This document shows, piece after piece, positions 26,487-26,597 of a stretch of 64,000 bases of DNA. This DNA is from Escherichia phage Antha. A program made the translations under genes and the position numbers. The notes beneath the pieces were generated by a model. That model was not told the origin of the DNA, did not search any database, and saw only the letters and a list, made by a program, of their open reading frames with translations. Numbering within the stretch: the stretch's first letter is position 1; each line of letters begins with the position of its first letter. The stretch lies in the sequence record PP925826.1. The stretch is one strand, 5' to 3'.

Positions 26487-26597
26487 AATGAGAAAATTCT
26501 CATTTGCTAATGATTCTCATTCTCTTACTGAGAATGATTATCACTTACATAGTTAAATGATAATGATTCTCATTTACAAACGAAAATGATTCTCATT
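26487..26597. repeat. cluster of five Fur-box-like palindromes
   Basis: aatgagaaaattctcatt, aatgattctcatt (x3), gagaatgattatcac. Confidence 0.5.

Follow-up and report, generated by a model that had tools for sequence, protein, structure and literature searches.

Clustered Fur-type palindromes at the inner edge of the early block of Escherichia phage Antha

Escherichia phage Antha (PP925826.1) carries, in the 64,000-nucleotide stretch analysed here (the window), an array of five tightly grouped Fur-type sites at 26487-26600, four of which share 15-16 of the 19 positions of the E. coli Fur box GATAATGATAATCATTATC. The sites have the sequence of Fur operators, cluster non-randomly, hold a conserved position and stand in a genome-end context. 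Judged by their sequence, the palindromes are very likely competent to bind Fur; as to what they do, we lean toward a model in which the array consists of host Fe2+-Fur operators and would work non-classically and in a position-specific manner, as a nucleoprotein boundary or regulator at the inner edge of the early block.

Palindromes with the sequence of Fur operators

An earlier note on this DNA had listed five palindromes in about 110 bp, and every sequence it named is where it had been placed: aatgagaaaattctcatt at 26487-26504, three exact copies of aatgattctcatt (26509-26521, 26562-26574 and 26585-26597) and gagaatgattatcac at 26530-26544. The 13-mer had been given a TCT centre; it is instead a 5-3-5 imperfect palindrome, AATGA-TTC-TCATT. 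Read as Fur boxes, the palindromes make up the following sites:

26487-26504: site 1, AATGAGAAAATTCTCATT, an 8-2-8 palindrome found in all relatives examined
26506-26524: site 2, GCTAATGATTCTCATTCTC, 16/19; 23.8 bits with the phage matrix; 16.6 bits with the E. coli-derived matrix, the second-best score of the window
26524-26548: site 3, two overlapping boxes (26524 and 26530) with a 6-bp shift, GAGAATGATTATCACTTAC, 15/19 (box at 26530)
26553-26577: site 4, two overlapping boxes (26553 and 26559) with a 6-bp shift, GATAATGATTCTCATTTAC, 16/19 (box at 26559)
26582-26600: site 5, GAAAATGATTCTCATTAAC, 16/19

Site 1 is the ancestral box. It lacks one A that the 19-bp version of phage BME3 has, and scores below 13/19 because its A-run is 1 nt shorter in the Antha window; the Vequintavirinae version is a perfect 9-1-9 palindrome, AATGAGAATGATTCTCATT, equal to the perfect 7-1-7 form TGAGAATgATTCTCA carried by relatives. 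Site 5 of BME3 is changed at five positions relative to the Antha window and is still Fur-like at 15/19.

Could so many sites arise by chance in DNA of this composition? With up to two mismatches, the 13-mer occurs 19 times in the 64-kb window, against 4.5 expected, a count that none of 100 shuffles reaches; its occurrences concentrate at 14733-14751, 14934, 15783-15853 and 26509-26597, which bears out the kinship with sites at 14.7-15.9 kb that had been proposed. Fur consensus matches of at least 15/19 number 9 in 64 kb (0.63 expected), among them those at 14736, 14931 and 15780 (15, 17 and 16 of 19, respectively). Within 26470-26610 there are four, against 0.012 expected from shuffles of this segment that keep its 29% G+C; thus the motif is not a product of AT-richness, the by-product reading that the earlier note had set up against itself.

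The resemblance to Fur operators holds in both directions. A Fur box was taken to be a 19-bp inverted repeat of the consensus above with at least three NATWAT hexamers, with TGATAATnATTATCA as its 7-1-7 form. A phage-only matrix, built from 38 19-mers (from the window, a T5-like phage, Phapecoctavirus and a Klebsiella relative) and applied to 200 kb of E. coli K-12 sequence, has among its top hits the entC/fepB, ryhB, fecI, fepD-entS, fhuA and fecA operators; about two of its ten top hits are unexplained. Conversely, an E. coli-only matrix, built from 23 sites in those K-12 operator regions, has its six best hits of the 64 kb at 14931, 26506, 15780, 26559, 26582 and 14736. The GAGAAT variant favoured by the phage is also found in the ryhB, fecI, fhuA and fepB operators, and boxes overlap with 6-bp shifts at 26524/26530, 26553/26559 and 14730/14736/14742. 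Overlapping sites 6 bp apart are a hallmark of E. coli Fur clusters (PMC2189734).

Which protein would read these sites? The earlier note had suggested a dimeric regulator that binds cooperatively, "Fur-like" or phage-encoded. Consensus matches of 15-17/19, 6-bp-shifted pairs and reciprocal matrix recovery argue strongly, at the level of sequence, for the former. The latter is not supported: tblastn with an E. coli Fur sequence detected no Fur homologue in the phage, and the motif is common to unrelated phage families (T5-like, Stephanstirmvirinae and Vequintavirinae) and at least 47 unrelated viral contig groups, a distribution that indicates a conserved host factor.

The array in its genome

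Antha is a phi92-like virulent myovirus, and the DNA around the array shares 98-100% identity with members of Justusliebigvirus (Stephanstirmvirinae), e.g., inny, ESCO9 and KMB37. Four GenBank records labelled "Campylobacter phage", host C. jejuni (MG065639, MG065645, MG065656 and MG065689), are ~98% identical to this E. coli Justusliebigvirus, which looks like mislabelling or contamination. The array itself sits in a conserved 1.5-kb non-coding gap (25507-27036) between two minus-strand genes, and its surroundings comprise the following features:

14680-15022: direct terminal repeat, 343 bp (phi92 LTR/RTR, 99% identity)
15780-15798 (16/19) and 15832-15856: two inner Fur boxes, ~1.1 kb inside the terminus, at the terminus-proximal edge of the early block
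16531-25586, minus strand: early block, with 16 promoters TTGACA-N16-18-TAWNNT and small genes
25958-26224, plus strand: ORF88, 88 aa, a phi92 gp224 homologue (phrog_19316), conserved and the sole plus-strand gene of the gap
26227-26362, plus strand: promoter P1 (near-consensus TTGACA-17-TATACT) and element 1 (26262-26362)
26397-26424, plus strand: P2, a putative sigma-70-type promoter (TTGCTT-16-TATTCT) recognized from its sequence; it points toward the boxes, with the first box at about +57
26431-26480, plus strand: element 2, ATGGCGAGGGG..CGCGAGACAAACACCG..CCTGC, abutting site 1; 85-89% conserved across genera
26618-26838: three iteron-like repeats of ~70 bp, TTGAAnTTTTCATTTTCAAAAT plus AACTTTAAATA, directly after the boxes and very AT-rich

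The mapping of the phi92 repeat and the start of BME3, whose termini were determined by PhageTerm and which begins at window position 14681, place the physical genome end at ~14680. Within the terminal repeat, Fur boxes occupy 14730-14760, where the box is kept in the Phapecoctavirus and Klebsiella relatives, and 14925-14949 (17/19); the first ~95 nt of the repeat, beginning with TTAACGCG and including the former box, are conserved in the same phages. The array lies 11.8 kb from the genome end, i.e., at 8.0% of ~148 kb. In the complete 147-kb genome of BME3, the E. coli matrix at 15 bits or more hits the terminal-repeat copies, position 1162, the cluster at ~11.9 kb and, once, position 122150; these are 10 hits, against 0 in shuffles. 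Between the terminus and the inner boxes, 15040-15780 is a low-complexity, non-coding stretch of ~31% G+C that abounds in short repeats of the tagata/ttatag type and includes a palindrome at 15300-15341.

Fur boxes thus flank 16531-25586 on both sides. This segment is a host-polymerase immediate-early block: TTGACA-N16-18-TAWNNT occurs 30 times in the whole window (3.0 expected), with 16 of these on the minus strand of the block, and many of the block's promoters are followed by a conserved 5' hairpin GGGCGGGAAA..TTTCCCGCC (GGGCGGGAAAnnnTTTCCCGCC) and a Shine-Dalgarno sequence. Its ORFs all encode fewer than 190 aa and, except for a Gp30.8-like protein, have no Pfam match. T4-type late promoters (TATAAATA) were sought as well and are not enriched.

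Along the plus strand, the gap reads ORF88, terminator hairpin/P1, element 1, P2, element 2, Fur boxes and three iterons. The terminator hairpin of ORF88 doubles as the spacer of P1, and G-U pairs in the FBKp34 version of this hairpin are compatible with the plus strand only. The P2 hexamers, TTGMTY and TATTMT, and their 16-nt spacing are kept in Stephanstirmvirinae and Seunavirus while the spacer sequence varies; pEa56 has TTGACC-17-GATACT at this position. P2 and its start site are sequence-based predictions. Elements 1 and 2 (e.g., CGCGAGACAAACACCG and GATCGCCGGTAG), each behind a sigma-70-type promoter, are near-invariant across Stephanstirmvirinae and Vequintavirinae. We do not call them sRNAs because they fold no better than shuffles (z = 0.04 for element 2) and show no covariation (zero in the element 2 consensus structure); neither has an Rfam match. 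Indeed, Rfam returned nothing meaningful for the whole window at the gathering threshold or for 25.5-27.1 kb at an E-value threshold, the weak miRNA-type hits being due to the palindromes, and a tRNA scan of the window found none.

The iteron motif AACTTTAAATA is found only at 26618-26838 within the window; it is not a general promoter. The record of phage inny annotates the stretch as a repeat_region, relatives have different repeats at the same position, and proteins may assemble here, as at an origin or for another purpose. The window shows no enrichment of DnaA boxes, and TTWTNCACA is absent from 14.4-16.1 kb and from 25.5-27.0 kb. Adjoining the gap, 27037-29780 (minus strand) encodes a NADAR-domain protein, a CapR/T5orf172-domain endonuclease and an AAA ATPase with weak similarity to helicase loaders or clamp loaders.

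How well has this arrangement withstood evolution? The order of promoter, element 2, Fur box(es) and repeats is kept in Phapecoctavirus, in a Klebsiella Stephanstirmvirinae phage and in two Vequintavirinae genera, Seunavirus and Henunavirus. The start of the first box is fixed at +33 nt from CGCGAGACAA in five genera of two subfamilies, while the boxes vary in number, between one double site and five sites, and change in sequence without ceasing to be Fur-like. Fixed positions and a motif kept despite turnover point to selection on the motif and argue against drift and against a pure decoy. One detail counts against the boundary model outlined above: in Antha, site 1 lacks one base of spacing.

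Counterparts in phage T5 and other viral contigs

In a sensitive DNA search with the array, T5-like phages were matched only at their own box cluster. The Fur-type boxes of T5 (up to 16/19) lie at 9549-9718 of 121,750, inside the annotated injection stop signal (iss), where they straddle the calculated first-step shear point (9618) and adjoin a nick (9748); they correspond to the DRC repeats and palindromes palE-palJ of Repeat Region 3. Read on the opposite strand, the window 13-mer AATGATTCTCATT is the T5 DRC core, AATGAGAATCATT. A further conserved T5 site, at 228-252, is located near the left end, inside dmp, and T5-type repeats resembling Fur boxes also occur at 1400-1590 and 9378-9973 of two other sequences analysed (L003 and L021, respectively). 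According to Davison, the role of the T5 palindromes is "impossible to guess"; Fur is unmentioned there (10.1101/866236).

The parallels extend beyond the identical 13-mer core. In both phages, the array occupies a non-coding gap of ~1.5 kb at ~7.9-8.0% from the genome end, beside a host-polymerase early block, and the order is a rightward unit with a hairpin, the Fur boxes, iterons and convergent leftward genes; in both, a box lies within ~250 bp of the terminus. However, the T5 and Antha regions share no homology outside the boxes. Paired DnaA boxes in inverted repeats (IRD'/IRC') are present in T5 but not in the Antha gaps; T5 has nine DRD repeats and a ~10-kb terminal repeat that encloses the stop-signal region, whereas Antha has unrelated 70-bp iterons and a 343-bp repeat; and two-step transfer, which depends on the pre-early proteins A1/A2, is proven for T5 only.

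Similar arrays are found well outside these phages. Scanning IMG/VR for pairs of DRC cores within 30 nt gave at least 120 stretches, which fall into at least 47 unrelated nucleotide groups of 30-63% G+C, one group being T5-like among the matches listed. At least 58 loci have four or more strong boxes in 300 bp, nearly all of them in long non-coding gaps or at contig edges; the arrays hold 5-11 boxes and often stand beside iterons or a G/C-rich tract (GGGG../CCCC..). Two contigs that were examined carry phage genes (podovirus portal and DNA ligase in one; GP88 and ribonucleotide reductase in the other), and the two largest contig groups among the matches listed have no close cultured relative. 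That many unrelated contigs have 5-11 boxes suggests a general phage strategy, be it a sensor, a barrier or a decoy.

What might the array do?

If the array consists of Fur operators, which promoter does it control? Scanning and inspection by eye revealed no convincing sigma-70 promoter that overlaps the boxes on either strand: no box of the array covers the -35/-10 elements of a sigma-70 promoter, and 26394-26722 has no promoter-like site of at least 9/12 in either orientation. Since the boxes overlap no promoter, Fur would probably not be a classical promoter-occluding repressor here. This sets the array apart from E. coli clusters, 83% of which overlap a sigma-70 promoter (PMC2189734), even though the two are alike in other respects: the fepB-entC, ryhB, fhuF and iucA clusters (Chen et al. 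2007, PMC2189734) have the same 19-bp motif with the GAGAAT variant, 6-bp-shifted overlaps and several sites over ~100 bp. The setting differs too, as the Antha array belongs to a virulent phage genome with no iron-related gene nearby, lies between convergent units and beside iterons, and has counterparts in the terminal repeat.

Fur has other documented modes of action. Fur clusters between promoter and start codon exist (PMC2189734), and Fur can act at a distance of 60-240 bp upstream, in part by reversing the silencing by H-NS, as at ftnA (PMC10219339). The upstream sites at ftnA (Nandal et al. 2010, cited in PMC10219339) offer an analogy, with multiple boxes off the promoter and occupancy rather than occlusion; ftnA, however, has H-NS silencing of a target promoter, and the likeness of Antha goes no further than analogy. 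Boxes on phage DNA are also familiar from temperate-phage and prophage cargo: stx1, sitABCD on lambdoid phages (PMC6969025), and the nohA/nohB, ydfK and ynaE clusters (PMC2189734). These, too, are host Fur sites carried by phage DNA, but they are single operators of a cargo gene in temperate phages, whereas Antha, a virulent phage, has arrays in core control regions and at its termini. In the literature searched, Fur was linked to T5, phi92, rV5 or phage genomes only through such cargo boxes; no paper on Fur boxes in phi92-like or T5-like phages, or on arrays of them as a general phage strategy, was found there.

The fixed offset, the lack of promoter overlap and the documented non-occluding modes of Fur together favor a non-occluding, position-specific role. 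In the model that we prefer, the boxes in the terminal repeat and those just inside it would form the outer boundary of the early block and the array its inner boundary; Fur would nucleate an extended Fur-DNA complex at a fixed position, tying events at this boundary to the iron status of the host. Two kinds of event come into question: rightward P1/P2 transcripts reading through into the iteron region, and read-through or spreading of H-NS toward the early promoters. Fur occupancy, its cooperativity and a boundary or roadblock effect are predictions from sequence, and the consequence of binding may be a roadblock, anti-silencing or architecture. An assembly site of an origin-like or entry-related kind would explain the layout of iterons plus boxes in Antha, T5 and other contigs no less well than a transcriptional boundary would. 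If Fur does occupy these sites, large virulent coliphages would have wired the host iron sensor into the non-coding regions flanking their early genes and into their terminal repeats, for a purpose other than the control of iron genes. The finding also lends an identity to the conserved repeats of T5, which opens the injection-stop problem to tests.

Why would a phage carry Fur boxes at all if no gene is controlled in cis? One answer, which we consider rather doubtful, is that ~11 strong boxes on hundreds of genome copies sequester Fur, derepressing the host iron-uptake and RyhB regulon and feeding the iron-dependent ribonucleotide reductases of the phage. The FURTA assay relies on such titration by cloned Fur boxes, and the boxes are indeed strong, numerous and clear of promoters; genes for class I and class III ribonucleotide reductases are present in the phage, and many viral contigs, with their 5-11 boxes per array, have the look of decoys. 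A decoy, though, would have no need of the invariant 33-nt offset to element 2 in two subfamilies, nor of confinement to a few fixed positions rather than a genome-wide spread. T5 degrades host DNA within minutes (A1 annotation; PMC13250531) and has boxes all the same, so derepression of host genes cannot be their purpose in T5. An unlikely second answer borrows from T5 itself: arrays at the terminus and at 8% would delimit the segment that enters and is expressed first, as part of a module for entry or topology that resembles the T5 stop signal, with bound Fur helping to pause entry or looping the early block for supercoiling. The identity of the 13-mer and the DRC core, the position of the T5 boxes around the shear point and nick, the parallel layout with boxes at the terminus and the published statement that no function is known for the T5 palindromes (10.1101/866236) would all be in keeping with it. 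Staged entry of phi92-like phages, however, is postulated by analogy with T5, and Antha differs in having no DnaA boxes, a repeat of 343 bp rather than 10 kb and different iterons; the terminal site of T5, inside the conserved dmp gene, may be there by chance. In addition, we know of no mechanism by which a cytoplasmic repressor halts DNA translocation. An improbable generalization is that Fur arrays constitute a widespread, undescribed phage cis-module that marks the ends of the first-entering, host-polymerase-transcribed segment of phi92/rV5-like myoviruses and T5-like siphoviruses, with Fur helping to pause or organize entry; were this true, the 50-year-old "injection stop signal" of T5 would gain a host factor, and phi92-like phages would be predicted to enter in T5-like stages.

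The iterons invite yet another interpretation, in which P1/P2 transcription runs into AT-rich repeats of a replication origin and Fur serves as an architectural cofactor, as DnaA and IHF do in plasmid and phage origins. Strong rightward promoters, boxes and three unique 70-bp iterons in DNA of 20-30% G+C would suit an origin, a gene for a helicase-loader-like ATPase is 2 kb away, and iterons adjoin arrays in T5 and in two contigs (L103 and L126). We nonetheless deem this quite improbable: there is neither a replication-initiator gene beside the iterons nor a DnaA box, and, to our knowledge, Fur has no role at origins. The T5 origins, mapped near the genome centre (10.1101/866236), count against it as well. 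Very improbable is a phage-encoded dimeric regulator, such as ORF88, with operators that resemble Fur boxes by chance. In favor of ORF88 are its conservation, its divergent placement and a stretch that looks like a helix-turn-helix (GGTVHQVASATGLKVETVL), but this stretch lacks family or structure support for DNA binding: ORF88 has no Pfam or PDB match, and its single-sequence AlphaFold model (pLDDT 37.6) is too poor to use. The motif, for its part, is indistinguishable from E. coli Fur operators and occurs in unrelated phages without ORF88 (T5-like phages and many contigs). Hardly credible, finally, is an array without function, whether a local tandem duplication in AT-rich DNA or a mere RNA/DNA hairpin-forming region. 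Direct-repeat families (D7-D9 and D12) and the fold of the array RNA (z = -5.7), which is due to the palindromes, could be cited in its favor; yet the local excess of sites over shuffles, the retention of the motif through turnover across genera and subfamilies, and half-sites that remain Fur-like instead of covarying freely all speak against it.

Elsewhere in the window, a Fur-like site (16/19) at 38449-38477 abuts a perfect DnaA box, TTATCCACA; both fall within an ORF of 937 aa, and the site was set aside on this ground as probably a chance match.
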